Made by a program: the position numbers and the translations under genes. From contig NW_018480043.1 in NCBI RefSeq assembly GCF_002113885.1, forward strand, positions 200,955 through 264,954: DNA of 64,000 nucleotides. The letters run 5' to 3'. Positions 9,499 to 36,700 of this stretch are shown here, in pieces (position 1 is the stretch's first letter; the number at the start of each line of letters is the position of its first letter). The DNA comes from Mizuhopecten yessoensis. Taxonomy: Eukaryota. The notes below the pieces were generated by a model. That model worked only from the letters and a program-made list of their open reading frames with translations, did not search any database and was not told the origin of the DNA.

Positions 9499-12400
9499 TT
9501 ACTTTCTGGGGAGTCCAGCTTGAGGTGGGTAAGGTGAGTACTGTAAAAGAAATGTCACACATTCAGATAACTCTTGACTGTAGATTTAGACAAATTTGCG
9601 GATAGAAAGGAAAGGGGTTATACTAAAGGATAGGGTTATACTAAAGCATAGGGTTATACTAGCCAGTATTGTAACTGTGGATGGATTTTTTCTGGTTTTC
9701 TGGTAATAAATAAATTCCTCTCAATTAGGCATAATCTTTGTTCCAGTATATTTAAATGGTAACAGTCATTTCACAACATTTATTTCATTCTGTGTTAACT
9801 TGAAAATAATAAATCTACAAAATGTAATGTAAAACTATTTCGCATATCCACAGTTTTTCAGTATGTATTTCCAAACACACTCCACATTTTTCTTTTTTAA
9901 TCACTTAACTAAAACATATTATTGACCTAACAACACCATATCTTAATACACCCTAAAAGTTGTTACTATCTGTTTATGTCGTCAAGGAATTATATAAACA
10001 TCTAACAATACAGTAGTGACTTTGTGATACTTACGATGAGTCGGACACCAAACTGTCCGTGGTCACCACCTCCTGTGGCGAGGGCAGACTTGAGTTGTCC
10101 TGAGGGAATCACACCAACATACTGTCCACCCACCTTCTTAGACATGATGGTGACAAACTGTCTACCAGCCAAGGACAGCTGTAGAAGTGTCTCCACACCA
10201 TGCACGGCTCCTGGGGGCTATTAACAGACAAACAACTAAATATAGCGTATCCACACCATGAACGGCTCCCGGGGGCTATTAACAGACAAACAACTAAATA
10301 TAGCGTATCCACACCATACACGGCTCCTGGGGGCTATTTACATAAAAACAACTAAATATAGTGTATCCACACCATGAACGGCTCATGGGGGCTATTAACA
10401 GACAAACAACTAAATATAGCGTATCCACACCATGAACGGCTCATGGGGGCTATTAACAGACAAACAACTAAATATAGCGTATCCACACCATGAACGGCTC
10501 CTGGGGGCTATTAACAGACAAACAACTAAATATAGCGTATCCACACCATGAACGGCTCCTGGGGGCTATTTACATATAAACAACTAAATATAGTGTATCC
10601 ACACCATGAACGGCTCCTGGGGGCTATTAACAGACAAACAACTAAATATAGCGTATCCACACCATGAACGGCTCCTGGGGGCTATTTACATATAAACAAC
10701 TAAATATAGTGTATCCACACCATGAACGGCTCCTGGGGGCTATTAACAGACAAACAACTAAAAATAGCGTATCCACACCATGCACGGGTACTGGGGGCTA
10801 TTAACAGACAAACAACTAAATATAGCGTATCCACACCATGAACGGCTATGCATGGCTCCTGGGGGCTATTAACAGATAAACAACTAAATATAGCGTATCC
10901 ACACCATGCATGGCTCCTGGGGACTATTAACAGATAAACAACTAAATATAGCGTATCCACACCATGAACGGCTCCTGGGGGCTATTTACATATGAACAAA
11001 TAAATATAGCGTATCCACACCATGAATGGCTCCTGGGGGCTATTAACAGATAAACAACTAAATATAGCGTATCCACACCATGCATGGCTCCTGGGGGCTA
11101 TTAACAGATAAACAACTAAATATAGCGTATCCACACCATGCATGGCTCCTGGGGACTATTAACAGATAAACAACTAAATATAGCGTATCCACACCATGAA
11201 CGGCTCCTGGGGGCTATTTACATATGAACAAATAAATATAGCGTATCCACACCATGAATGGCTCCTGGGGGCTATTAACAGATAAACAACTAAATATAGC
11301 GTATCCACACCATGCATGGCTCCTGGGGGCTATTTACATATAAACAAATAAATATAGCATATCCACACCATGAACGGGTCATGGGGGCTATTAACAAACA
11401 AACAACTAAATATAGTGTATCCACACCATGCACGGGTACTGGGGGCTATTTACATATGAACAATTAAATATAGTGTATCCACACCATGAACGGCTCATGG
11501 GGGCTATTAACAGACAAACAACTAAATATAGCATATCCACACCATGAACGGCTTATGGGGGCTATTAACAAACAAACAACTAAATATAGTGTATCCACAC
11601 CATGAACGGGTCCAGGGGGCTATTAACAGACAAACAACTAAATATAGCGTATCCACACCATTCAAGGCTCCTGGGGGCTATTAACAGACAAACAACTAAA
11701 TATAGCGTATCCACACCATAAACGGCTCATGGGGGCTATTAACAGACAAACAACTAAATATAGTGTATCCACACGATGCAAGGCTCCTGGGGGCTATGAA
11801 CAGACAACCAACTAAATATAGCGTATCCACACCATGAACGGCTCCTGGGGGCTATTTACATATAAACAAATAAATAAAGTGTATCCACACCATGCATGGC
11901 TCCTGGGGGCTATTAACAGATAAACAAATAAATATAGCGTATCCACACCATGCATGGCTCCCGGGGGCTATTTACATATGAACAACTAAATATAGCGTAT
12001 CCACACCATTCAAGGCTCCTGGGGGCTATGAGCAGACAACCAACTAAATATAGCGTATCCACACCATTCAAGGCTCCTGGGGGCTATTAACAGACAAACA
12101 ACTAAATATAGCGTATCCACACCATGAACGGCTCCTGGGGGCTATTTACATATGAACAACTAAATATAGTGTATCCACACCATTCAAGGCTCCTGGGGGC
12201 TATGAACAAACAAACAACTAAATATAGCGTATCCACACCATGAACGGCTCCCGGGGGCTATTTACATATAAACAAATAAATATAGTGTATCCACAACATT
12301 CAAGGCTCCTGGGGGCTATGAACAGACAACCGACTAAATATAGCGTATCCACATGATGCACAGCTCCTGGGGGCTATTTTCATATAAACAAATAAATATA

Positions 12401-15400
12401 GTGTATCCACACCATTCAAGGCTCCTGGGGGCTATGAACAGATAAACAACTAAATATAGTGTATCCACAGCATGCACGCCTCATGGGGGCTATTAACAGA
12501 TAAACAACTAAATTTAGTGTATCCACACCAGGCATGGCTCCCGGGGGCTATTAACAGATAAGCACCTAAATATAGCGTATCCACACCATGAACGGCTCCT
12601 GGGGGGCTATTAACAGATAAATACCTAAATATAGCGTATCCACACCATGCACAGGTCCTTGGGGCTAATAACAGATCAACAATTAATATAGTGTATCCAC
12701 ACCATGCATGGCTCCTGGGGGCTATGAACAGATAAACAACTAAATGTAGCGTAATCAAACGGTGCACGGCTCCTCGGGACAAACAACATTTAAACACACA
12801 AAGGAGGACAGCGAGGACTACACTAAGGATGTCTTTCCATGGACCGCAGTAGCTGTGACAGTCTGTCCTCATCTGAGGAGCTGTCCGACCTCAGATTGTG
12901 ACCTTGATGGGCAGGACTTTTGAATCTAAGGGCCTGGTAAGCAGAAATTTACCCCGTCACGTCAAATTTATACACACAGTAGTGACCCCACACTGTACTA
13001 ACCAACCAGCTTATACACACAGTAGTGACCCCACACTTTACTAACCAACCAACTTATACACACAGTAGTGACCCCACACTGTACTAACCAACCAACTTAT
13101 ACACACAGTAGTGACCCTACACTGTACTAACCAATCAACTTCTACACACAGTAGTGACCCCACACTGTACTAATCAACAAACTTGAACACACAGCAGTGA
13201 CCCCACACTGTACTAACCAACCAACTTATACACACAGTAGTGACCCTACACTGTACTAACCAATCAACTTCTACACACAGTAGTGACCCCACACTGTACT
13301 AACCAACCAACTTATACACACAGCAGTGACCCAACACTGTACTAACCAACCAACTTCTACACACAGTAGTGACCCCACACTGTACTAATCAACAAACTTG
13401 AACACACAGCAGTGACCCCACACTGTACTAACCAACAAACTTCTACACACAGTAGTGACCCCACACTGTACTAACCAACCAACTTATACACACAGTAGTG
13501 ACCCCACACTGTACTGTACTGTACTGACTGGTCAGAAAAGACCTATGTGTGGTATTGCATATGAATCAAAGCATTAGTTAAATAGCATACGTTGAACATC
13601 ATATAGATTTCACGAGTATGGCAGAACAGTGATTTTTTTTTCAAAGAAACATGATGCAAATATTATTGCATCAAAAAAGGGTGGAATTAGTAGCGTAATA
13701 GTTGACATCAGGGTTTTAATGACATCACACTTGACAACGATTCTGTCATATGCTGCTATTATGATATTCTATTAAGATTTCAAAAAAAAAAATGATTTAA
13801 ATTGTGAAATTATGTGAACACCATAATTTACATTGTAAAGGTGTACCAAAATAATCACTAATTTTGTCATCGCTTCATCTGAACTTGAAGCTGAAAATCG
13901 ATGCAGTGAATAGAAAGTACCATTCTGACCTAACAAAACTGATAAGTGATATATCTTAACATGTTTAGATATAACATTTCATGTACCATAACTGCAGTGT
14001 ATGAAAATATAGTTTTTTATCAAAAAGGATAATTCCTGATATTTCACTGGTAAAAATGTAATAAGTACAGTTTATATCATACTGCATCATCAACAGAGAG
14101 TGAAATCCATTTAATACCGCACCTCAGAGAGTTGTGCCAGGACCTACATTGTATTATTGTGTAAACTTGTGATTGGGTAACATACCATGTTGACAAGGAC
14201 AGTGTTGCCGTTGACGATGGCCAGGTAGTTGTTGTTGTTGTGAAGGCGCACCTGGTTTTTCCCTTCGTTAATCACAGTCCAGACCGCTATAGAAAATTGA
14301 AGTATTCAACATTATCATCCTATAGGTTCATTGTTAAAATAATGTTTACATTGACATTTCAGTAATGGCTAATTACGTACTTCTGATGAAAACATGAAAG
14401 AATACCATTAATGATTACAATGCTAATAGCATGACATTGTTACAACAGGATAAGAACACAACCAACACTAAATATAAGATGTGTATCATCTATTACTGAT
14501 CTACAGTGTTTTCCCATCAAATTTTAACAACAGCCTTTTCCTATATAAATTGGGAAAATATAGCTTTATTGTTTTGAAACTGGGGAGATATATCTCATTT
14601 TTTCTTTGCTGATGAAAAAAAGAGCATTTTTTTATAGGGAATTAACATCGAAGCATCCAGCTGTATTCGGCTGTAAAAACGGCAATAAAATCACTGACCT
14701 ATGGCCCTTACTGACCACTGTAGTGGGTTTTTCTCCCCACTATTCCGTCTTTGCGTATTGCAGAGTTATCTTCTCTTGGGAGCAGGGATTGATTGTTACG
14801 TCACTTATTTATGAGAGTAACGTCATCAATTTTTGAGAAAACGACGTAATTTTCTCGCACAAACCAATGACGTAACAATCAATACCTGCTCCCAAGAGAA
14901 GATAACTCTGCAATACCAGAGACGGAATTCATTGACTCTCGGGTGTTTGCCCCTAAAGGTTAAATACTCACCATTGGGCACATTTGGTCCCTCTAGACCT
15001 GCCCCATCTACAACTAAATGACCAGTAGGAGCAGCCACAATCTGTAAGGTTCGGCCACTGGCTCGAGATATAAGCTGGACAATATTATTGGTCTTGAAAT
15101 GGTCCTGAAATTTAATTTTAATCATGATGATAAAACGACATACAGGATTTCTTACCAGATTTTCACATAAATATTATAAAATAAATGTGAAAATTGATCA
15201 TGAAAGTCAAACAACATTATTTAACAAAAAACGGTACTTTAAACACCAAAAAGATCCTGCTAGATAAAGCTGCAATATGATGACATAATATTACTCACAT
15301 TGAAATCTTATTTCAAAACATAAGCCGACATCTAAGGTAAATCCACTTCTTTTATAATTCTGAATTTTAAATTTTAATCAGAAATTTATTAAATTCCTTA

Positions 15401-16828
15401 CACATATATTTTGCTTTAAGCTGAATATTTAAAGCCTTTTGGTTTCCTTTACACCAATATAAATATCAGGTAAATAAATCCTAAACTTCAGTAAATACAA
15501 GAAAAATAGTAACTGTAACTGTAGTTCAGGCTACCACCCAGGGACAACTCCACTAATCTTATACCTGGGGCTAAAAGATTTCATGTTACAGCTAGTGAAA
15601 ATTTTCAGTATTTAATATGAATTTTATGTTGGGCCAGCAGAACTGTTTAGAATTGTTTGTGCACTCTATATATGAAATTGTACACTGTTGCTAACTATCT
15701 CTTGATGGACCATGTGACCTGTATATGGAGACCTGTCTAGTGAGAGACCAAATGTGAAAAGTTATGGGGTCACTTGCCCAACCATGTGGGTTGTCTTCAG
15801 GTGCTCTGGTTTCCTCCCACATTAAGACCCCCTGCGTGCTAACATCAGGGCCGGAAAGAATAATTAATATAAGTTGTAATAACTTGTTTCATAATTGATG
15901 TAAAATAAATAAAATTTATATTTGTTTTAGTAAGAGACCATGGGACCTGTCTAGTGTTAAGTAGTATAAGCAGTTTACCAATACTGGGCTGATAGCGTTC
16001 TGGTCTACATGCCCGACCGCCTTGTTAGCAACCCAGTTGATCTCGCGCTCAGTCATCCTCCCCATGGCGTCCACCTCCTTGGACAGGAACCCAAGTATAC
16101 CATGCTGGAAAATTAACCACACAAGGTTGATTTCACTTTGAAATATCTGACAATATCAAAAGAATCTTGCATAAAATATTCTTGGATGTTCAGACTCACA
16201 ACTGGGAGTATATTTTCTTAATTAAAGAATTATATAATATCATGTCAATCATAGATACCACAGCTAGGCTTCAAGTCTGAAATATTGTACATTTCCATCA
16301 CAAGCGGACACCATAGGGGTCAAGGGTCATGTCAAGGTTACCTTAGGAGTGTGTACTTACTGAGTTCTTCGGTGGTGGTGCGACCACTCGCTGCTGGACT
16401 ATAATGGTTGGCTGCCAAAAGAAATGAGGACAATCAATAAATGAACTGAGTAAAAATTACTGAATTCAGCTAGATTCCAGCGAGCGCTGATTATCAAATA
16501 ATAAATCTTCAATTTTATGAAATATATATTATATCTTTAAAAAATATCTTTTAATAAAGACCATATCACATGCACTTTGGGTAGATAGGTTACACTAATT
16601 TAAGTACTTGTTAAGTCCCTAATTCTAATCAAACAATAAGATAATAAGTCTGTGCTGTAATGCTAAATTTAACATTATGGCGCTACATACCCCAGCTGGG
16701 GCTGGGTAAGCTGGCTGTGGTGCGGCACTGTATGGGGGTGGCACTGGCCCACTGGGATAATAAGCTCCTTGAGGCTGCTGATAAGCTGGGGGCATGTTCC
16801 CACCAGGGTAACCACTTTTATCTGCCAT
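9499..16828 (-). CDS. Uncharacterised 257-aa protein: Pro/Tyr-rich N-terminus with PPxY motifs and a C-terminal probable beta-trefoil (FGF/IL-1/fascin-like) domain
   Basis: Coding exons 16828-16691, 16411-16361, 16104-15979, 15104-14972, 14286-14186, 10217-10035 and 9540-9499. All introns are GT-AG with consistent phases (0,0,0,1,0,0), total 774 nt, reading MADKSGYPGG...QLISRASGRTLQIV...VRLHNNNNYLAIVNG...YVGVIPSGQLK...QFGVRLIYSPYPPQAGLPRK*. The fold call is inferred from the strand pattern. Confidence 0.8.
10193..12780 (-). repeat. 58-bp minisatellite (~44 copies) whose unit is the splice acceptor plus the first ~25 nt of the exon at 10217-10035
   Basis: Minus-strand unit: ...ttagttgtttgtctgttaatAG|CCCCCAGGAGCCGTTCATGGTGTGGAtacgctatat. 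The real exon starts AG|CCCCCAGGAGCCGTGCATGGTGTGGAGAC. Confidence 0.95.
12968..13517. repeat. ~43-bp minisatellite (ACACACAGTAGTGACCCCACACTGTACTAACCAACCAACTTAT), ~13 copies
   Basis: Direct tandem repeats within an intron. Confidence 0.92.
14741..14929. mobile_element. ~190-bp MITE with ~60-bp terminal inverted repeats (copy 1)
   Basis: TATTCCGTCTTTGCGTATTGCAGAGTTATCTTCTCTTGGGAGCAGG... pairs with ...CCTGCTCCCAAGAGAAGATAACTCTGCAATAC...GACGGAAT. A closely similar copy lies at 42591-42780. Confidence 0.85.
15745..15915 (+). mobile_element. SINE remnant
   Basis: Contains 'caggtgctctggtttcctcccaca', resembling the conserved GGTACTCCGGTTTCCTCCCAC SINE core, followed by an A-rich tail. Confidence 0.5.
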
Positions 16829-17807
16829 GTTGATTATTTCTTGTGCTGAAAATGAATCAAAGATATATAGTGTTTAACAAAGTATATCAAGTGATACACT
16901 CATCCCTTCTGATCACAGCCGCTCAGCCTCATCTGCCAATACATCTAAAATAATCTATAATGCCGTGTTATCTATCAAGTGTATTGACAGGTGAGGCTAG
17001 CGGCTGTGATATACTTACACTGTACCACCCAATAGTGTTTTATTTTTACATGGTTGTGCAATGTTTGGGCAACTCTTTCAAACTTATAAAATAAACTTAG
17101 GTAGCAGAGTACAGTAGAAATGACTTGATCCTAAAAAATAAAGGGCATGTCTCAGATAAACATGGATAGCAGATTTATCCTGCACAACACACCTACATAT
17201 ATATATATTTATAAACTACGTTTTGAATACATTGTTTTTAGAAGAATTTTTTTTTTCAAAAAGTGTTTTCCCCAGATTAGCGACTTGTGAAAACCATGGT
17301 TAACACATCAAAAAATGCTAAAAAATGCCAAAAAACATGATTTTTAACCCAAAATTTGACCCATGCAAGTAGTATTTTTTTTCTTAAAACCTGTCTTAAA
17401 TGAATATCACATTTTAGCATAGGTCGTTCAACTGGATTTTTTTAAAATGTGAAGCCCACATAGTCCACTTCATCATGTATATGCCAATTTTAGTGTTTTT
17501 TTTTTTAAAAACTTTGATACATGTTATATAACATGGGTTATACATTGTACAAAAATATCACCCATGGCCACCGTACGCTACTGAACACTGCTACCTTACA
17601 CATGTTATTTCATTTTACAAGAATTACGAAACAAGTTTTTCAAACTTCTAGTTTGATTTGATTTATTTAGATAATTTTGACAATATTCATTTTTATTTAC
17701 ATAAATGAAAAATGTTAGGTATTACATCTGAGCTGGGTGTCAGACGTTTCGCCCCAAAACCGTTACGCCCAAAATTTGATTCATATCACCCCAACCAGTT
17801 CGCCCCA

Positions 17808-18350: not shown

Positions 18351-20184
18351 GAATTGGTTAACAAATATCCTGTGTGTGAAGATTTAATCGTGGAGTGCAG
18401 GCGGTCTTGTAACGTGTACCCTTGCACCCTTTAATTAGCATCATGTGTTATATGTCAAAATCTGTCCGCAACCAGAAAGTTGACTTAAAATCCTGACATA
18501 TTATGTCTCAATATACGTGTACATTCTACTTGTAAATTATTGTTATCATTATAATGCATTTATTCAAAAAGCTAAATTGTTTAAACAAGTGCATTAATAA
18601 AATTCACAACATGTGTATATTTACAAACGTGTTATTTTATCTACTGAAATGGTATTTATATGGTATAACTTTTGGTCGGATGTATACGATCTCAAAATAG
18701 TTCATTGAAATTTTGAATTACATTTAATCATAGGAATTCAGCATTTTTTCAATATTCAATGACTATTGAGAAAGTTTTGACTCCATCAAATGATCTTTGA
18801 TTCTGAAATATTAAAGAACATGTCTATTTGATATGTTTCATATCTTTGCTGTAACCAAACCATTACACATTGTAGTATCTTTTTAACATAATAAGCAACC
18901 CCCCCCCCCCCCCAAATAATTTTTCTTGTCCCCCTAATCCATAACTTACCAAATGACAAATAATGTCTATTATGGCTTATCTATATAATTTTGAAAGATT
19001 CAGCAAATATTCTTATTTTCCCAAATTGTTTTCAATAAATTATTGATACAGGCCTCACAAACAACTACATTTATATATAGCTATGTAACTAGTTTGAGGT
19101 ATACTAATAATTAGGAACCAGTATGATTTAAATTTGCATAAGTCATTTTAAATTTTTCAATATCAAATTCAAAAACATAACTTTAAAAGTAACAATCCAT
19201 AATGTATTCTGCCCAGTTACATTCACGTCCTTGTACATTTCAAACCAGCTTAAGCATTTTTGTTGTTCCTATTAGAAAATGTTAAATGGCTGACATTCTG
19301 ATATCTTAATATGTTTAGGGTAAGAACAGTAATTTTGCTTCTCAACTGATTAAGTCCGGGTAAAATACTTATATAATTATCATGTAATAAGAAGGGCAGA
19401 AACTCAATTGGCATATCATTCTGCCTATATTTTACTTTTCAAAAATTGACAGACAATCTCTTTCATCAACATGCAAACTGTAAGTCATCAAAACAATTAA
19501 TATTTTACAAAAACATTACCAGATCATTAAAACAAATAACAATGTAAAAAAAATATACCAATTGAGTCTTTGGGTAACGTGTTCCTAATCAGTTATATTC
19601 AAGCGAAACTGGCAATAATTACCGACACTTTCACACAAGATCAGATCAGACTGGATATTAGATATTCGAAACAAGAAATGAATAATTAATATTGACAAGG
19701 AAATAGTCACAGCTCTGATCTACATGTATATGTACATACATATGGGTAACTTCATATTTTAGAATTGTAATGATCACTCACTGGCTAGTGTTATATACTT
19801 ATTTAAACCCCTGGTATACCACAAACACTGGCCTCCCTGTCAGTTCACGTGAGTGTATGTACACAGACGTAAATAGAGACAGCTAATAATCAGGCTATTT
19901 ATTGTCAATTTCAAACACGTCTGTTATTTTTATTTTGCATTAATGATGTCCTAGCAACATAACAACTTAGAACTGTGTTAAATTTAACACTTGCGAAGTA
20001 ATGAAATGGGACAACTCTTTTGAAAATTTACAAAGATAAGATTAAAGACTCAAAGACTAAATACTGAAATGCACACACTTGTGCACACACTTGTAGGACT
20101 ACAATAGACTAAATAATGAAATGCATGAGTGTCCATTATTCAACATTCTTATAAAGTTATGATATCATAAGACGTCGACGTACC

Positions 20185-20457
20185 TGTGTAATCTTTTCGT
20201 GACTGTGACACTTCGCCTGACAACTTGGTTCTGATTAAATAATGCCTGATGATTCGTAGTCACAAGGCACAACAAATATCTACTTCCGCGTATTCGAACT
20301 CCTCGGATTTTTTCATACAATTATTGGACAATGACGAAAGAGGTACCGAATGACAAAAGACAAAAAATCTTAGACTTTTGCACGCTTAAAACTTGATAAA
20401 TATTACTACTGCAAATGCAAACGCACGGACGACTGTCAGTGTCCTCCATCGTCCATC
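20185..20457. promoter_or_regulatory. Putative bidirectional promoter between the beta-trefoil gene (-) and OAF (+)
   Basis: A minus-strand donor (cacag|gtacg) at ~20183 would end a non-coding first exon, and the OAF ATG is at 20458. The region is CpG-enriched with an ETS-like ACTTCCGC at 20282. Confidence 0.5.
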
Positions 20458-23400
20458 ATGGACACTTTGCTTGAGGTATTTCTGTTAATATCGTTTGTGT
20501 TTTTCCTACAACAAACAAGTTCTCAGCTGGTTGTCAATGTCAAAAACCGTGGAGGAGATGTTGTAATTGAAACCATCCAGGCAAATACATCGAACGACGT
20601 CGTTCAACTCCAGTTCCAGAACACGGATGGCACTATTGTACATCAGTTCATTGACTACAAGTCTGTAAGTCAATTAAAAACAAAACAGGATTGAACTCTT
20701 CTGACTTGAGAGCATATGCAGGAACTCCTCAAAACACATTTGTATACATCTATCTGTGAAAGATTTACCCAATACAACCCAATACAAGTGTCTATTTACC
20801 CAATACAACCCAATACAACCCAATACTACCCAATGCAACCCAATACTACCCAATGCAACCCAATTATGCAATACAAGTATCGATTTACCCAATACTATCC
20901 AATATAAAGTTAAATGTACCCAATACAAGTAACAATGTAGTGCGGACCTGGGTATTTTTTGGCAAGATCGTCGTTATTTGGAAATCCTTGATTCAACCAT
21001 TTCATTTCAAAATATTTCATTGTTAATGAAAACAAAGATAAATACAATTATTATAGAAGAAATATAACAATACATGTATTAACAAAGGGACGAGACAACA
21101 GGCTTAATCTATAAAGTCTTTTCCTATAGATACTGGTATTCAATCATTTTTATTTCATTAATGTATTGAAGTTATGGGTGGAAGATAGCTAGGACAATAA
21201 CGATTTTTTTTTATTTATTAACTATAATGAACGAGCACATATGCTCACGCACTTTCTACTACCATTCATAATTGGTATATTTTATATCGTTTGAACTTGC
21301 ATGTATAAAGATATTACTTATAAATTGAGGATAGTTCTTTATGGGAACTAGTATGATTAAGTATATTTCTATTAGTTTCGTTAGACATATCAACGACACC
21401 ATGACAACATGAAGATTTACAAATCCTAATAGATTATACACAAAGAAGATGTGTTGCCTAAAATACCTATAAAGAGGACATTCAAAGAAAAAGTGTACTG
21501 TTTTTTTTTCTATATTTTGCACCACATGAATAGGAACTCAAGCTATGTTTCATTCACGAATGGAACAGTAAACGAATGGATACACATTAGTGAAATGCTT
21601 TTCTTGATGAACCTCGCCATATATTTTTTCTTGACAACAATATACTAACAAGTAAACGATGTCTGGGAAGAGTGCTGGAATATTTCATTAGTGGTAGCTA
21701 GATAGGACAATAACGGACAAAACATCATTACAATCACTCACTCTCATATACTACCATTTGTACTTGTTATATGTTTTGTTGTATTGTTAGAACTTACATA
21801 TATAAAGACATTACATAACAATTCATATTTTTTAAAAAAAAGGGTCATTGACAATATTTCTGTTTGTTTCTAGAATAATGTATTGGAATATAGGAGATCA
21901 CGAGCAGCAACTAATTAAGCATCATAGTTATACTAGTATTTTGAAAACTTACGAATATATATATGTGTAAATATTTGTATTCAAGTTTCGTTGTTCTTGG
22001 TTTTTTAAAATTAAGTTACCATTTTGATGAAATTTTAACCTTTTATTATTTCTGGGTAATTGAATGTTCCATGTATATATTTAGTGTATGCCTATTTTTG
22101 TCTAAATAGTGATTGACTATTAGTTCTATTCATAATTGTACGTACACAGACGGACGGAGAGGAAAACTATAGTCCCCCCAAAAAAGTTGATAATTTCTGG
22201 CATCTATCTTTATGTACTAAAAATGATTCTTTTACAAACAACAAAGGACAGCATTTTACTTTCAGAGAATGATTACTCAGATTATTAATATATACACATT
22301 CTGCTAGGATACAAACCAGTTATTCTTTAAATTACAGTGATCAAATTAATATTTTATATTATAATAAGCACCAATTCTAATTGTAGGAGGCCCAAGTTTT
22401 TCGAGCTCATGTCCTGTGGGAAGAAGAGCAGGGATTTTCTCAGTACAAACCACAAGTCCTCTGTTTTGTAACTCGTTTTAACAAGAATGAGTTTATATCT
22501 GCAGATGCTATGTCAAAACTGCGACAGGTATGTACTCTCGTAGACATGGAAATTGGAATCCCACAATTCATCCTTGTTAGAACACAAGAGTAGTGCCAAA
22601 TAAGTAATACTTTTGTAAAATATACTGAATATTTTCTATATTGTTTTAATGAGTATTCCAATAAGTCGAGATGAATAGATATCAGTTATAAAATATTATA
22701 ATTTTACTCTGACTTTTTTGTTATTTTTGCTTATATAAAAAATATTTGTATTGTTCAGACTATATGATTCATCAGTTTCTATTGGTGATAATTAAAGTTA
22801 CTAACACAGTTTAATACCCAGAATTTTTACCACAATCACCACTTACTGTCTTAAAAATAACTACATTTATTGATGATTAATCACGAACATACAAAGTATT
22901 ATATGTGGTCATGCAGTATTGATCATATAACTTCCTAAAAATCTTGTTTTAACCCTTTCACTCCTAGGTAACTTTAGTAGACTCTACCAGACATCGATCT
23001 GGCTGAGTCCATTATAGTCTACAGTGGTGAAAGGGTTAAGATTTTTTAGTAGTTACAATAACCAATGAACTTAAGTGAGAATTTCCTGACGGTGTATCAT
23101 ATAAGTGATATCATTTGTATTCAACATACATCCGTATAGACTACAGGAACCTGGCTGTTGTTTGTTGTAGAAAAATCCAACAGCCATCCGTCAACCAGAA
23201 GAGGAACGCCCCCCAGAGTTACACACAATGGACACTCAGGTGTACCTGGACCGGGCAGGACTCATCTCTCCACATCTCACCAACACCTGTAGTGATGCTG
23301 CCGAATCCATCTACACCAAGGAAAGTGACATCAGACTCTGGGCCAGGGGTAAGTCATTTATAGTACAGTGATGTTGTAAACACCATCTACACCAAGGAGA

Positions 23401-24314
23401 GTGACATCAGACTCTTGGCCAGGGGTAAGTCATTTATAGTACAGTGATGTTGTATACACCATCTACACCAAGGACAGTGACATCAGACTCTGGGCCAGGG
23501 GTAAGTCATTTATAGTACAGTGATGTTGTAAACACCATCTACACCAAGGAGAGTGACATCAGACTCTGGGCCAGGGGTAAGGCATTTATAGTACAGTGAT
23601 GTTGTAAACACCATCTACACCAAGGAAAGTGACATCAGACTCTGGGCCAGGGGTAAGTCATTTATAGTACAGTGATGCTGTCAACACCATCAACACCAAG
23701 GAAAGTGACATCAGACTATCGGTCGGAGTCAAGCAATGAATAGTGTAGTGAGAAAAGACTAAAAGTAATATTTTAGTCACCTGTATTTGTTTCTTCCTTG
23801 TCTAACTACATGTAACTGTATGTGTGACCAGTATAGATGTTTGTTACAGGCCTTGGGAGGGAATATTTTCCCTATCATTTTGATCATGTTTCTTATTCAA
23901 GTAACCTCCACGAGGCTGCTGCCCTTCATGTGTGTATGATAGTAACAGAGAAGGAATGCTGCCTTCTTGTAAACCACAATTTTGTTGCTTTCTTGTCACA
24001 TACCTTTCTTTGTTGTCAGTGTTTATGTGGTGTTTGTTGCAGCCCCAGGGAGAGATGGCCTAATGGGCACTGTCCAGCGACTTTACCCAACAAAATACCA
24101 GCACTGCCACCTGGTGGAGGACGTCACCAAGCCGTGTCTGTGTACCTATAGTCTCACTGTGGGTTGGTACCCTTGTGGCCTGAAGTACTGTCGGGGCAAA
24201 GACTCTACCGGCAAATATGTTAGCTACCGCTGCGGCATCAAAACCTGTAAACGGCATCTCTCCTTTGACTATGTATCCAAGCAGAAAATGTTTTGTATGT
24301 GGGATGAGACCTAA
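20458..24314 (+). CDS. OAF: Out at first protein homolog, 265 aa, secreted
   Basis: Exons 20458-20664, 22387-22527, 23171-23348 and 24043-24314 (phases 0,0,1). Signal peptide followed by family-typical LVVNVKNRGGDV, EFISADAMSKLRQKNPTAIRQPEEE and WYPCGLKYCRGKD...YRCGIKTC...CMWDE. Confidence 0.93.
20765..20930. repeat. ~10-bp short tandem repeat (ACCCAATACA)
   Basis: Repeated in OAF intron 1. Confidence 0.8.
22949..23039. mobile_element. 83-bp piggyBac-type MITE with TTAA TSD (copy 1)
   Basis: TTAA|CCCTTTCAC...GTGAAAGGG|TTAA; homologous in reverse orientation to the copies at 30107 and 32837. Confidence 0.85.
23307..23735 (+). repeat. 76-bp tandem repeat (6 copies) containing the 3' end of OAF exon 3 and its splice donor
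   Basis: Unit CCATCTACACCAAGGAAAGTGACATCAGACTCTGGGCCAGGG|GTAAGTcatttatagtacagtgatgttgtaaaca, starting at 23307, 23383, 23459, 23535, 23611 and 23687. Confidence 0.95.
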
Positions 24315-25595: not shown

Positions 25596-26408
25596 ATCTT
25601 TTATGTTTTCGAAAGAAAATTCTACCTTATTTGTCCCTCTTTATCAACTCCCAGAACAATTACAGAAAGTGATCTTATGACAGAAAATGCCTGAATTCTC
25701 TACGTTCAATGGAAAATGATCAAGTGAAAAACAGTTCTATTAAAGTGGAACATTTCTTCGTGATTGTAACTTGACCTTTACCTTAACAAATGGTCCAACA
25801 CTTCATTAGGAGCTCTACTTCAGTGCTACTTGTAGGTTTGGTCCCAGACACCAGTACCAACTGTGTTTCTTCACATGTGTTGTAAGTCTATGTAGTTGAT
25901 CATTGTGTTTCTGTGTCAGTGTTTGAGGTGGTTCAACATCTCTCCGCAGACACTCCATATATACTATATACAAGGCTTATTTTGTTTCAATCTGATTAAA
26001 ATCTTTTATGTTTTCGAAAGAAAATTCTACCTTATTTGTCCCTCTTTATCAACTCCCAGAACAATTACAGAAAGTGATCTTATGACAGAAAATGCCTGAA
26101 TTCTCTACGTTCAATGGAAAATGATCAAGTGAAAAACAGTTCTATTAAAGTGGAACATTTCTTCGTGATTGTAACTTGACCTTTACCTTAACAAATGGTC
26201 CAACACTTCATTAGGAGCTCTACTTCAGTGCTACTTGTAGGTTTGGTCCCAGACACCAGTACCAACTGTGTTTCTTCACATGTGTTGTAAGTCTATGTAG
26301 TTGATCATTGTGTTTCTGTGTCAGTGTTTGAGGTGGTTCAACATCTCTCCGCAGACACTCCATATATACTATATACAAGGCTTATTTTGTTTCAATCTGA
26401 TTAAAATC
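25596..26408. repeat. 405-bp apparently identical tandem duplication
   Basis: 25596-26000 matches 26001-26405, with ATC microhomology at the junction. Confidence 0.9.
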
Positions 26409-30768: not shown

Positions 30769-33700
30769 TTATTGTTTAGTTACCTTCATCATTTTCATTT
30801 TTGGTTGTTTCCTCTTCATTTCTCTTCTGCTTTCTCGCTCCTTAAAAACACAAGTATCGGAATCAGTCATTTCAGTAAATAACAGTGCTAAGAGTATCTG
30901 CATTTACAGCAAACATCAATGATAACAATCACAGATATAAATCACAAATTAGTTTAAGAGAGTAGGTCCTACAATGTCTGCACCTGCGTGGGGCAATACC
31001 TCAATTATGGTTAATAATGGTTGTTGGCAAACTAAAATGGTCGTTATCAAACTTATCCAAGCTTTTATGAATTAACCTTTTTGTGAATTTTAAAGTTTAT
31101 CTGTTGAAAATCACTCAAGATATCAAGCGAACTCTGTTTTTGCAAGTGAAAATACAATGTACAATAATATTGATCATCAAACTAGTCTGAACTTTCATGA
31201 CAATTAACCTTCATATGAAGTTTCAAGATAATCTGTTGAAAATAACTTAATATCATGCAGACACTGAGTGTCTCCTCACTTGATAACAATATGTCCCATC
31301 TTTAGAAGGGTGTATAAAAAGAAATCTAACCACAAAATTATAGCACAGATCCTATTAAATTTAGCAAATATTTTGAATATTATTTGAATACAGGAAATGT
31401 GTATTCCTTTGAAGGTAAAAAGTTCATCCAGGTGTCAACAAACGCTCATTATCTTAGGTAACCTTGATTTTAAGGACCCAGATAAAGGCTGAAAACATCC
31501 GAGATCTACCCCCTACTTGACCTAAAACTTTAGCCATGTTGGTAATGGCCACATACACTGACTCTGACCTACATCCATACAAGGTTGACCTACCTCCCAT
31601 TTCCTATACACTAACCCTGACCCTGACCTACATCCATACAAGGTTGAACTACCTCCCACTTCCTATACACTAACCCTGACCTACATCCATACAAGGCTGA
31701 CCTACCTCCCACTTCTTATACACTAACCCTGACCCTGACCTACATCCATACAAAGTTGACCTACCTCCCACTTCCTATAATCTAACCCTGACCCTGACCT
31801 ACATCCATACAAGGTTGACCTACCTCCCACTTCCTATTCACTAACCCTGACCCTGACCTACATCTATACAAGGTTGACCTACCTCCCACTTCCTATACAC
31901 TAACCCTGACCCTGACCTACATCCATACAAAGTTGACCTACCTCCCACTTCCTATACACTAACCCTGACCTACATCCATACAAGGTTGACCTACCTCCCA
32001 ATTCCTATAATCTAACCCTGACCCTGACCTACACCCATACAAGGCTGACCTACCTCCCAATTCCTATAATCTAACCCTGACCTACATCCATACAAGGTTG
32101 ACCTACCTCCCACTTCCTATAAGCTAACCCTGACCTACATCCATACAAGGCTGACCTACCTCCCACTTCCTATACACTAAACCTGACCTACATCCATACA
32201 AGGTTGATCTACCTCCCACTTCCTATACACTAACCCTGACCTTGACCTACATCCATACAAGGTTGACCTACCTCCCATTTCCTATACACTAACCCTGACC
32301 CTGACCTACATCCATACAAGGTTGACCTACCTCCCACTTCCTATACACTAACCCTGACCTACATCCATACAAGGCTGACATACCTCCCACTTCCTATACA
32401 CTAACACTAACCATGACCTACATCCATACATGGTTGACCTATCTCCCATTTCCTATACACTAACCCTGACCTACATCCATACAAGGTTGACCTACCTCCC
32501 ACTTCCTATACACTAACCCTGACCCTGATCCATACACGGTTGACCTACCTCCCACTTCCTAGTTTTATCAGGATCCTCCTCATTCATGATGCGTTCCTTC
32601 TCATTGCGACGTTTCTCTTCACGACGAAGCTGTGCTGCCTCTTGAAGCTGAGAATGAGCGGCTTTCAGGAATTGTTCTTCTGCTTTCTTCCTGTTCTTTT
32701 CTGATTTATTTCTTGCCTGAAGGATAAACTTGTTGTAAGAAATCTCTATATCAATGTATCTATGTGGACAAAGTCCAGTAAAGGCAATGGTCGATTACAG
32801 GACTCTGGTTTTTCTTTACATGACCTATTGGTTTCTTTAACCCTTTCACCACTGTAGACCATTATGGACTTGTCCATATCAATGCAAGGTAGAGCCTACT
32901 TTAGTTACATAGGGGTGAAAGGGTTAAGGCAGTTATAATGTGTGACAGCAATGCCAATAGAATTAAAAACATTCCTCTAGCCAAATCAATTACAACTGCC
33001 TAGATGGTTCACTACTTGAAAAATACTATTCCTCCATGGAAAGACCTCATCCTCGAGTCTTCTTCGTGCAAGCATGCTTGTAAGTGCAAAGCTAAGAAGA
33101 TTATGGATAATGTCTTGGTCCCTACATGGGCACTAATGTAACCCAGAGATGTAGTCAAGGATCCCTCCAAATATAATGAACTGGTCAAAATTATACTGAG
33201 GCTGAGGAGAGCTCCTACAGGGGGCCTTATAGCCTCCTAAAATTCAACTGATGACAAAGATTAAACAATAAATGCAATGCTTGTTTGTTCCAGAAAAGTA
33301 AGATAAATTCAATATTTTTGCAATAAGTTCCTCAACTATGTCCTTTTCTACATAAAACTTGTGTAATATTTGACAGTAACAGCATCTTGTCAGAGATAAT
33401 GTGACATTGCTATGATCTGCTTACCTCCTTGCCAAGCTGAAGGCGACTGACTTTCTCCAGGCAGTAGAAGACTAGCTGTAACAAGGGTTTCATCTGCTCC
33501 ATGTCTGTAGGCTTGCTCTTACCTTTACCAGGTACTGAAATGTAAAAACCAGAATATCACAATCCTGACAATTTCCTCTGTCCTCGTAGGTCTTGAAGTA
33601 ATTGAAGTGATATATGAATCATAACAATATTATAACAGGCCTAAGACTATAAACACCCTCCTCAAATTTCCTGTTATCACTTATTCCTGCTGTAGATTAA

Positions 33701-36700
33701 ATTTGACAGTAAAGGTTAAGTGCACTAGATCTACCCAGCATTCATTGGTTTGGGATCTTTGCCGGGTATCTATTACCCAACCTTTTTCTCTGTAGAAATT
33801 TCCAAATAAGATGTTACTTTAACAAAGAAGAAAATTTGATGCAGAGAATCGAACCCAACATTACATTTTCTGTAAAAATAAACGAAGTTTAATACAAGAA
33901 TTATGGAGAGGTGTCTTCAGTGCCAAAATGGAACAGTGAACTTTCCGGAAAACTTACCATTAAAACAAAATATCATTACAGGTTTAACCTCAGGCATTTT
34001 TGTGGCTTGGGACTCACTGTGGAAAAAACAAAACGTACTGTCAAACAAATGTATTCCATGTATTAAGGTGATACTGTTAACCGAAGTGTAAATATCAAAC
34101 TTTAGAGGAGTCATTAAAGCCAACTGGCGACAGAAATACAAAAACTCTGATCGGGCCCTCAAATATATACACTTACTCTTGTGATTTAACCCCCATAGAA
34201 CTGGCGACAGAAATATAAAAACTCTAATCGAGCCCTCAAATATATACACTTACTCTTGTGATTTAACCCCCATAGAGCTGGTGACAGAAATATACGAAAT
34301 AAACCAAGCTCTCAAATATATACACTTACTCTTGTGATTTAACCCCCATAGAACTTGCGACAGAAATATATGAAATACACCAAGCTCTCAAATATAAACA
34401 CTTACTCTTGTGATTTAACCCCCATAGAACTGGCGACAGAAATATATGAAATACACCAAGCCCTCAAATATATACACTTACTCTTGTGACCTTACCCCCA
34501 TAGAACTGGCGACAGATATATATGAAATACACCAAGCCCTCAAATATATACACTTACTCTTGTGATTTAACGCCCATAGAACTGGCGACAGAAATATAAA
34601 AACTCTAATCAAGCCCTCAAATATATACCCTTACTCTTGTGATTTTACCCCCATAGAACTGGCGACAGAAATATAAAAACTCTGATCAAGCCCTCAAATA
34701 TATACCCTTACTCTTGTGATTTAATCCCCATAGAACTGGCAACAGAAATATCTGAAATACACCAAGCCCTCAAATATATACACTTACTCTTGTGATTTAA
34801 CCCCCATAGAACTGAGGACAGAAATATGAAAACTCCAATTGGGCCCTCATATTTATACACTAACTTTTGTGACTTAACACCCATAGAACTGGCGACAGAA
34901 ATATATAAAATACACCAAGTCCTCAAATATATACCCTTACTCTTGTGATTTAACCCCCATAGAACTGGCGACAGGAAAATAAAAACTCTGATCGGGCCCT
35001 CAAATATATACACTTACTCTTGTGATATAACTAACCCCCATAGAGCTGGTGACAGAAATATAGGAAATACACCAAGCCCTCAAATATATACACTTACTCT
35101 TGCGACTTCGCTCCACAAAACTGGTCTGAGAAATGCATAAACTCCACCTGGCCCTCAAACTTGGTCAGCACTTGGCAAACCTGTCGACAAAACTCACAAA
35201 CTTTCAAAGACATCAAAAGTTATAAAAAAGGGCATTTGAAACAAGAAATATGGAATAACCTACCAATCAACAATAAAAGATTCCGTCGCTCATATACCAT
35301 GTTACATAAACTCAGCTCTTTTTCTTAATTATGTTTCTTGCTTATCAAGACATTATGTAGTATATTCGTATGAGACACATTGCTTAATTACTCATTTCAT
35401 TTAATAAGAAATCTCATGAAGGAAAATCTACTGTCAAGGTTTGGATACAAACTATTTTTATTTTCTCTTCAAACTAGACTAAGGAAATTAGTGAACAAGG
35501 GAGACTAAAAGGAGGAATGTCATACAATTTCATCAATGCCCAGAGCAAAATTATATAGACACTGTAGCAAATGGTAGTGGCAGATGGCAATTCTATTGGA
35601 ATATCGTTACGATTATCAGTTTTTTTCTGCTTATGGAGAGTGATTTATTGATTCTCTGAAGCTTTCAGAGATAGGTCTACTAATGATCACTTACCTTTTT
35701 ATCTAAAAGAGCATTAGATGCCTCTCCCACCTCACTCAGTAATTGGTATGAGCTTGGCATGTCAGAATATTTATCTAAATTCTTCTTTTCTGTAAACTGA
35801 CTCTGTCAAATAAAAACAGCACTTACAGATCACTTTGTGTCTCTTTATGTAACAGAAATCAACCACACATTTTATTTATTTACTTTGTGATAAACTTACC
35901 ATCCTTTGATTATTTTGTAATTTATATATACAGTCATTAAATTTCATCTCTGGTTCATTTTCTTTGTTAAAATATCAACAAAGAATAAACTCAACACAGC
36001 CATGCTTACCAAATCTATCATTTCCTTGTGTAGCTTGGCACAGCTCCTCTTCATAGCAATGGCGAAAACAAACTTGTCCATCACGTTCTTGTCTAGGTCT
36101 ATCGTCACCAACTACAGGTAATACAAAATAGCCGAATTATGAGTGGGGTCTTTATTGCTAAAATTTGGCATTTCGAGGGACACAACCTGAAAGTACTGAT
36201 CTGGGAACAATTTCAAATAGAAAAGTATTTTACATTTAAACTCTGTAGAAACCTGTAATTTTTGTTCGAAATGCTCTCCCTTTCCTTAGAAGTTAAAAAA
36301 GCAATTTTTCAAAAGAATGTTTTTCTAGTTATCAAAAATGATAAAGTAATACATGTACTTCAAACATAGACTATCATACTGTCTGTATTTTCGTGTTAGT
36401 TTGAACACAGCTTATAGATAATGTTTGTTGTTTTTACATTATATTGAATTGAATACTTTCTTGATGATTGAAAGAAATTCTGAACTCCCTCGAAATATGA
36501 TCTACTTATTTGACACCAGTTGCTACATACTATTTGATCTGAGGCAGGTTTAAACATGTTCGTCATGGTGCTGATGAGATCCTGTCTTTTCAGGAGTCTA
36601 AGTTCCACCAGCATACCCTCCAGAGCAGACCGTCCACTGCACCACAGCGCATACACATTCTCCGACTCCTTCATCAGGGTGCCAGCTTGTGCCTCCTTTG

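Follow-up and report, generated by a model that had tools for sequence, protein, structure and literature searches.

The locus described here raises the question of how one 3' splice site is selected from a tandem series of 44 similar ones, and of how such a series could arise. It lies in an intron of the gene LOC110442690, within a stretch of 64,000 nucleotides of the scallop Mizuhopecten yessoensis (the window). The 183-nt exon downstream of the series is a 100% match to P0001, the 257-amino-acid protein of M. yessoensis LOC110442690, and also matches the proteins of three other scallops, at 72-82%. When joined, the window's seven coding exons give the P0001 sequence, which probably derives from the same assembly and is thus not independent of the window. 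The relevant features are as follows.

14972..16848, minus strand: four further exons of LOC110442690 (16848-16691, 16411-16361, 16104-15979, 15104-14972), with RNA joints and a joined frame that equals P0001
14186..14286, minus strand: upstream 101-nt coding exon ending in ...VLVNM, with an RNA loose end that reads into copy 44
10218..14185, minus strand: 3968-nt GT..AG intron containing the array, from the sequence and RNA contigs
10192..12778, minus strand: 58-bp x44 minisatellite (mirage array), the unit being the last 26 intron nt plus the first ~32 exon nt
10275..12747, minus strand: 43 pseudo-acceptors, with their first exon-like bases at 12721 to 10275
10218..10243, minus strand: authentic 3' splice site, which is copy 44, with a U-rich tract and AG at 10219-10218, from RNA contigs and matrix score
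10035..10217, minus strand: 183-nt coding exon PPGAVHGV...GVRLI, residues 184-244 of P0001, from the protein match
10029..10034, minus strand: downstream 5' splice site GTAAGT, from the sequence; likely partner in cross-exon definition
9499..9540, minus strand: coding part of the last exon (YSPYPPQAGLPRK*), from the joined frame

The protein itself offers few clues. Neither of the two exons flanking the intron matched Pfam (0/2), and the sole Pfam match of the whole protein, RicinB_lectin_2 (E 0.076), lies under its cut-off and was rejected. The N-terminus of P0001 is rich in Pro/Gln; the C-terminus is possibly a beta-trefoil fold, a weak lead from structure-atlas look-alikes, and an AlphaFold model of the protein, made with four sequences, had a pLDDT of 32.

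The initial annotation had described about 44 tandem copies of a 58-bp acceptor unit, and this description was confirmed. TRF called a 58-bp unit at x44.4 (10192-12778, 87% matches), and 44 minus-strand sites with TAG followed by (C/T)CCC run from 12721 to 10217, with the TAG kept in 44/44 and a spacing of 58 nt in 40 of the 43 intervals (the remaining ones being 57, 59 and 68 nt). Two details had to be revised: the exonic part of the unit comprises about 32 nt, or 10-11 codons (PPGAVHGV[D/E]TL), rather than about eight codons, and the last 16 intron bases occur in 14 variants among the 44 copies rather than in two, the two that had been named accounting for 13 and 5 copies (18/44). The 26-nt intron end is identical to that of the authentic site in 11 of the 43 upstream copies and shows at most one difference in 20/43. 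The first fixed difference between the copies and the exon is found at +27, where the copies have T and the exon has G. The units are arranged head to tail, the unit spans an intron-exon boundary that RNA contigs and orthologs support as real, and the splice signal is duplicated in the copies, as in the minisatellites that have been termed 'mirages'. A second array in the same intron (43 bp x12.7, 12968-13515) spans no boundary; many of its AG look-alikes outscore the real acceptor.

Open read-through into the exon is obtained only from the copy with AG at 10219-10218 (copy 44), as had been claimed. All of the 43 upstream copies lead into a stop, including 13 that add a multiple of three nucleotides, and each premature stop lies at least 74 nt ahead of the last junction (43/43). 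The products of all 43 upstream copies are predicted targets of nonsense-mediated decay, and therefore steady-state RNA cannot separate copies that are never used from copies that are used and whose products are destroyed.

For the junction choice, RNA contigs of four runs (X1, X6, X7, X8) were compared with 13600-17400, the region upstream of the array. The contigs of all four runs skip four GT..AG introns and thus behave as spliced RNA. The junction letters were read for two of the four runs, X1 and X8, in which the loose end beyond 14186 is identical to the first 30 nt of copy 44 and to no other copy; X6 and X7 run on for 1539 bases past 14186 as single unbranched contigs of 2162 and 2221 nt. 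The main mRNA joins exon 14286-14186 to copy 44 and hence bypasses the upstream copies. The splice from 14186 to 10217, for which a cDNA check had been proposed, is the one present in assembled RNA contigs, with a junction specific for copy 44 in 2/4 runs. Use of the authentic site in the main mRNA is a further characteristic of mirages. At the protein level, the junction NM/PPG is kept, with no insertion, in the orthologs of all three other scallops.

It should be noted that the bypass is compatible with first-AG scanning. In that model, scanning begins at the branch point once this has been chosen, and it is the first AG beyond it that counts; the intron holds 233 AGs in total. The earlier view that the upstream copies are skipped holds for the main mRNA, and the supposed conflict with a first-AG model is unsupported.

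Which property, then, marks copy 44? The per-copy scoring that had been advised was performed with a crude acceptor matrix built from 19 other acceptors in the window. The authentic acceptor scored 3.1, compared with a median of 6.5 for those 19, and 24 of the 43 upstream copies, as well as 20 AGs of the intron outside the array, reached or exceeded the score of the real site. The predicted local RNA openness was greater in 20/43 copies than in copy 44. Acceptor strength and local RNA folding thus do not account for the choice of copy 44, and the cue must be downstream or positional. Unique to copy 44 are the exon body after +27 and the GTAAGT donor 183 nt away (10029..10034), which scored 8.8 with its own site included in the training of the matrix. 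The internal exons of the three genes of the window are 51-186 nt long (n=17), the exon of copy 44 has 183 nt, and exons of 241, 299 and 357 nt would result from the use of copies 43, 42 and 41, respectively. Exon length alone does not exclude copies 43 and 42, since both are less than 300 nt from the donor.

This leads to the strongest competing explanation, namely that the nearest copies, 43 and 42, are used appreciably and their products decayed, so that the length of the array or the type of its units tunes the mRNA level, as in a VNTR splicing or expression QTL. The weakness of the real acceptor, the identical 42-nt upstream context that copy 43 shares at a distance of 241 nt from the donor, and the position of the stop in every alternative product would all allow this, and human arrays in 6-16 and CBS (PMC1557585) and in ABCA7 (PMC5954066) are described as leaky. 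However, no alternative junction was present among the loose ends listed, in contigs that drop rare forms, and the contigs of X6, X7 and X8 are unbranched. Furthermore, the authentic site alone is used in the amphioxus mirages and in the human F7, LMNB2 and PDGF arrays, whereas two pseudo-sites are used besides it in 6-16 and CBS, as far as the accessible accounts go (PMC3087553, PMC3902484, PMC1557585). We therefore regard appreciable use of the neighbouring copies as unlikely.

The second competing explanation is that the array is for the most part an artefact of the assembly, or that its copy number is much inflated. The assembly is fragmented (82,659 contigs), the array contains an exact internal repeat of 255 nt at a lag of 232, which reflects either the recent duplication of four units or a local slip of the assembly, and a perfect 405-bp tandem duplication (100% identity) is found elsewhere in the window at 25596-26408, itself either very recent or a slip in assembling. 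Identical units would be expected of an artefact, and thus it counts against this explanation that 38 of the 44 units are distinct; in addition, the units show a gradient of divergence, the 5' edge of the array is decayed, and the array contains no N. Taken together, an artefact is very improbable. The divergence from the consensus drops towards the exon (rho -0.59, p 4e-5, computed on 42/44 units, the two units with indels being left out), and, judged from the sequence, this pattern of divergent outer units together with a higher-order four-unit repeat fits ordinary repeat turnover.

The unit also has a local origin. A 20-nt piece of it had four exact matches in the 988-Mb genome, all of them within the array, and the reversed control had none; the array is thus local and not a product of chance, and the repeat was made on the spot from the boundary of LOC110442690. 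For the same reason (4/4 exact matches inside the array), a dispersed satellite or a transposon-derived repeat was rejected. Within the repeated part of the exon, positions 10208-10203 (minus strand) encode A-V in this species and S/T-K/Q in the three other scallops. Conversion of the exon by the array is a possible source of this difference, seen in a comparison of four sequences.

Least probable of all is that the units serve as regulated micro-exons, each with an AG, 19 nt and a weak GT at +20, or as steps of recursive splicing: a weak donor-like site does occur in each unit (score 4.0, among the low values of real donors), and one AG/GT site exists at 12624, but inclusions of 19 or 40 nt break the frame, C and not GT follows the typical acceptor, the same weak GT is unused inside the real exon, and RNA contigs and orthologs are without an insertion. 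As a separate observation, copy 2 (12664-12620, minus strand) is followed by the donor-like AG/GT (score 5.9) and may form a pseudo-exon of 40 nt, such as has been proposed in the gain of introns from mirages.

The explanation that we consider highly probable is a minisatellite that was built from one scallop intron-exon boundary by local duplication and turnover and is removed with the intron, the last copy being used. A duplication of about 58 nt across the boundary would have been followed by expansion through slippage or unequal exchange, with the youngest units near the exon. Only after the last copy do the body of the real exon and a nearby donor follow, and thus the array is likely to be spliced out with the intron. 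The site would be picked by cross-exon definition, in which the donor at 10034 and putative enhancers in the exon body after +27 recruit the nearest upstream acceptor; the concept of cross-exon definition with exonic enhancers reportedly goes back to Robberson et al. in 1990 and Reed and Maniatis in 1986. Nonsense-mediated decay would dispose of any product made from an upstream copy. The array is likely harmless, and we assign no function to the extra copies.

The array thus has the testable properties of a mirage minisatellite and works like one. Since arrays of this type form a class that already has a name (PMC3087553, PMC3902484), the bypass of its copies is not surprising; the phenomenon is already known in kind, and known splicing rules are illustrated by it and not challenged. 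In amphioxus, mirages are described for the globins BflGb6 and BflGb9 and for Adh3, troponin C and PGBD5, with the same layout and, in the accessible parts of the two reports, without aberrant mRNA (PMC3087553, PMC3902484). As in the scallop, the unit of BflGb6 consists of the 3' end of an intron together with the 5' portion of the exon that follows, the splice signals are duplicated and the main mRNA is normal, and donor and acceptor types occur together in one genome, as they do in the scallop window. In contrast, BflGb6 is described with 3-6 units of 150-160 bp instead of 44 units of 58 bp, and length polymorphism has been shown in amphioxus, whereas the scallop array is known from one assembly (PMC3087553); moreover, the scallop host is a bivalve.

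The boundary-spanning arrays described in humans are F7 IVS7 (37 bp x5-9), 6-16, CBS IVS13, LMNB2 and PDGF, all on the donor side, and the F7 array has already served as a natural test, while engineered duplications of splice sites had conflicting outcomes (PMC1557585). These arrays likewise reiterate identical splice sites into the intron, with use of the copy that adjoins the true exon, but it is the donor that is repeated there and the acceptor in the scallop; in addition, the pseudo-sites used in 6-16 and CBS have no counterpart in the scallop contigs, the sensitivity of which is limited (PMC1557585). In the ABCA7 intron-18 VNTR (25 bp), the unit also carries a splice site, one unit is retained, and the products are out of frame and prone to decay, but this array is on the donor side and its length is reported to change splicing in people, in contrast to an acceptor-side array seen in one assembly (PMC5954066). 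A minisatellite in an intron of abalone TSSK1 was rejected as a relative, as the accessible part of its description does not present it as boundary-spanning. No report of a bivalve mirage was found in a literature search that had subscription journals mostly outside its reach.

The array is not the only one of its type in the window. Extra intronic copies accompany 4 of 40 splice sites of the three multi-exon genes, namely 42 copies at the LOC110442690 acceptor (by the threshold of the survey script), 4 at the OAF donor 23348, and 12 and 16 at the CCDC47 donors 35098 and 32549, respectively. The three additional arrays are as follows.

23307-23717, plus strand: donor-side mirage of OAF (out at first), 76 bp x5.4, comprising the exon end and donor 23348
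34155-35102, minus strand: donor-side mirage of CCDC47, 76 bp x12, donor 35098, the exon-derived part of which still translates to a decayed exon copy
31553-32561, minus strand: donor-side mirage of CCDC47, 59 bp x18, donor 32549

Among the five long arrays that lie within genes, four extend across a splice site, with a rough P of 0.004 against a simple null model adopted post hoc. The four repeated splice sites agree with ortholog alignments; a few boundaries of OAF and CCDC47 were set some bases off, so that these two joined frames do not read through. When 400 kb of the flanking contig were surveyed de novo, 11 of 96 arrays were flagged, compared with 6 of 97 in reversed sequence, and Pfam matched none of 14 candidate frames, which came from 10 of the 11 flagged arrays (one being too short), nor the one further candidate in the window (0/1). 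That the detector recovers the four arrays of the window is a circular result, since it had been trained with their sites. The 400-kb survey confirmed no array and neither supports nor excludes a genome-wide prevalence. An array with a 33-bp unit and at least 254 copies, which extends over more than 8 kb, is also present in the flanking contig (L036:1-8362). Elsewhere in the window, a single-exon ORF for a 249-amino-acid HAD phosphatase is found at 1487-2236 on the plus strand (Pfam Put_Phosphatase, E 1e-73), and the RNA loose end at 16848 matches the minus strand near 20190-20215 (region about 20184-20460), which places the first exon of LOC110442690 head-to-head with the start of OAF at 20458 and suggests a promoter shared by the two genes.

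A far-reaching generalization would be that scallop minisatellites are preferentially born at splice junctions and that long acceptor arrays act as length-variable dials, by which part of the transcript is diverted to adjacent copies and to decay; this would make them a widespread and so far overlooked source of variable expression and of new introns in bivalves. We consider this generalization quite improbable. With the highly probable explanation, a minisatellite built from a single boundary and spliced out with its intron, mirage repeats are extended to a bivalve. For the human F7 donor model, the locus is a clean counterpart on the acceptor side, with 11 decoys whose last 26 intron bases are those of the authentic site and which diverge from it only further downstream. 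If the copy number varied and altered the mRNA output, the array would lend itself to use as a marker in a species that is farmed.
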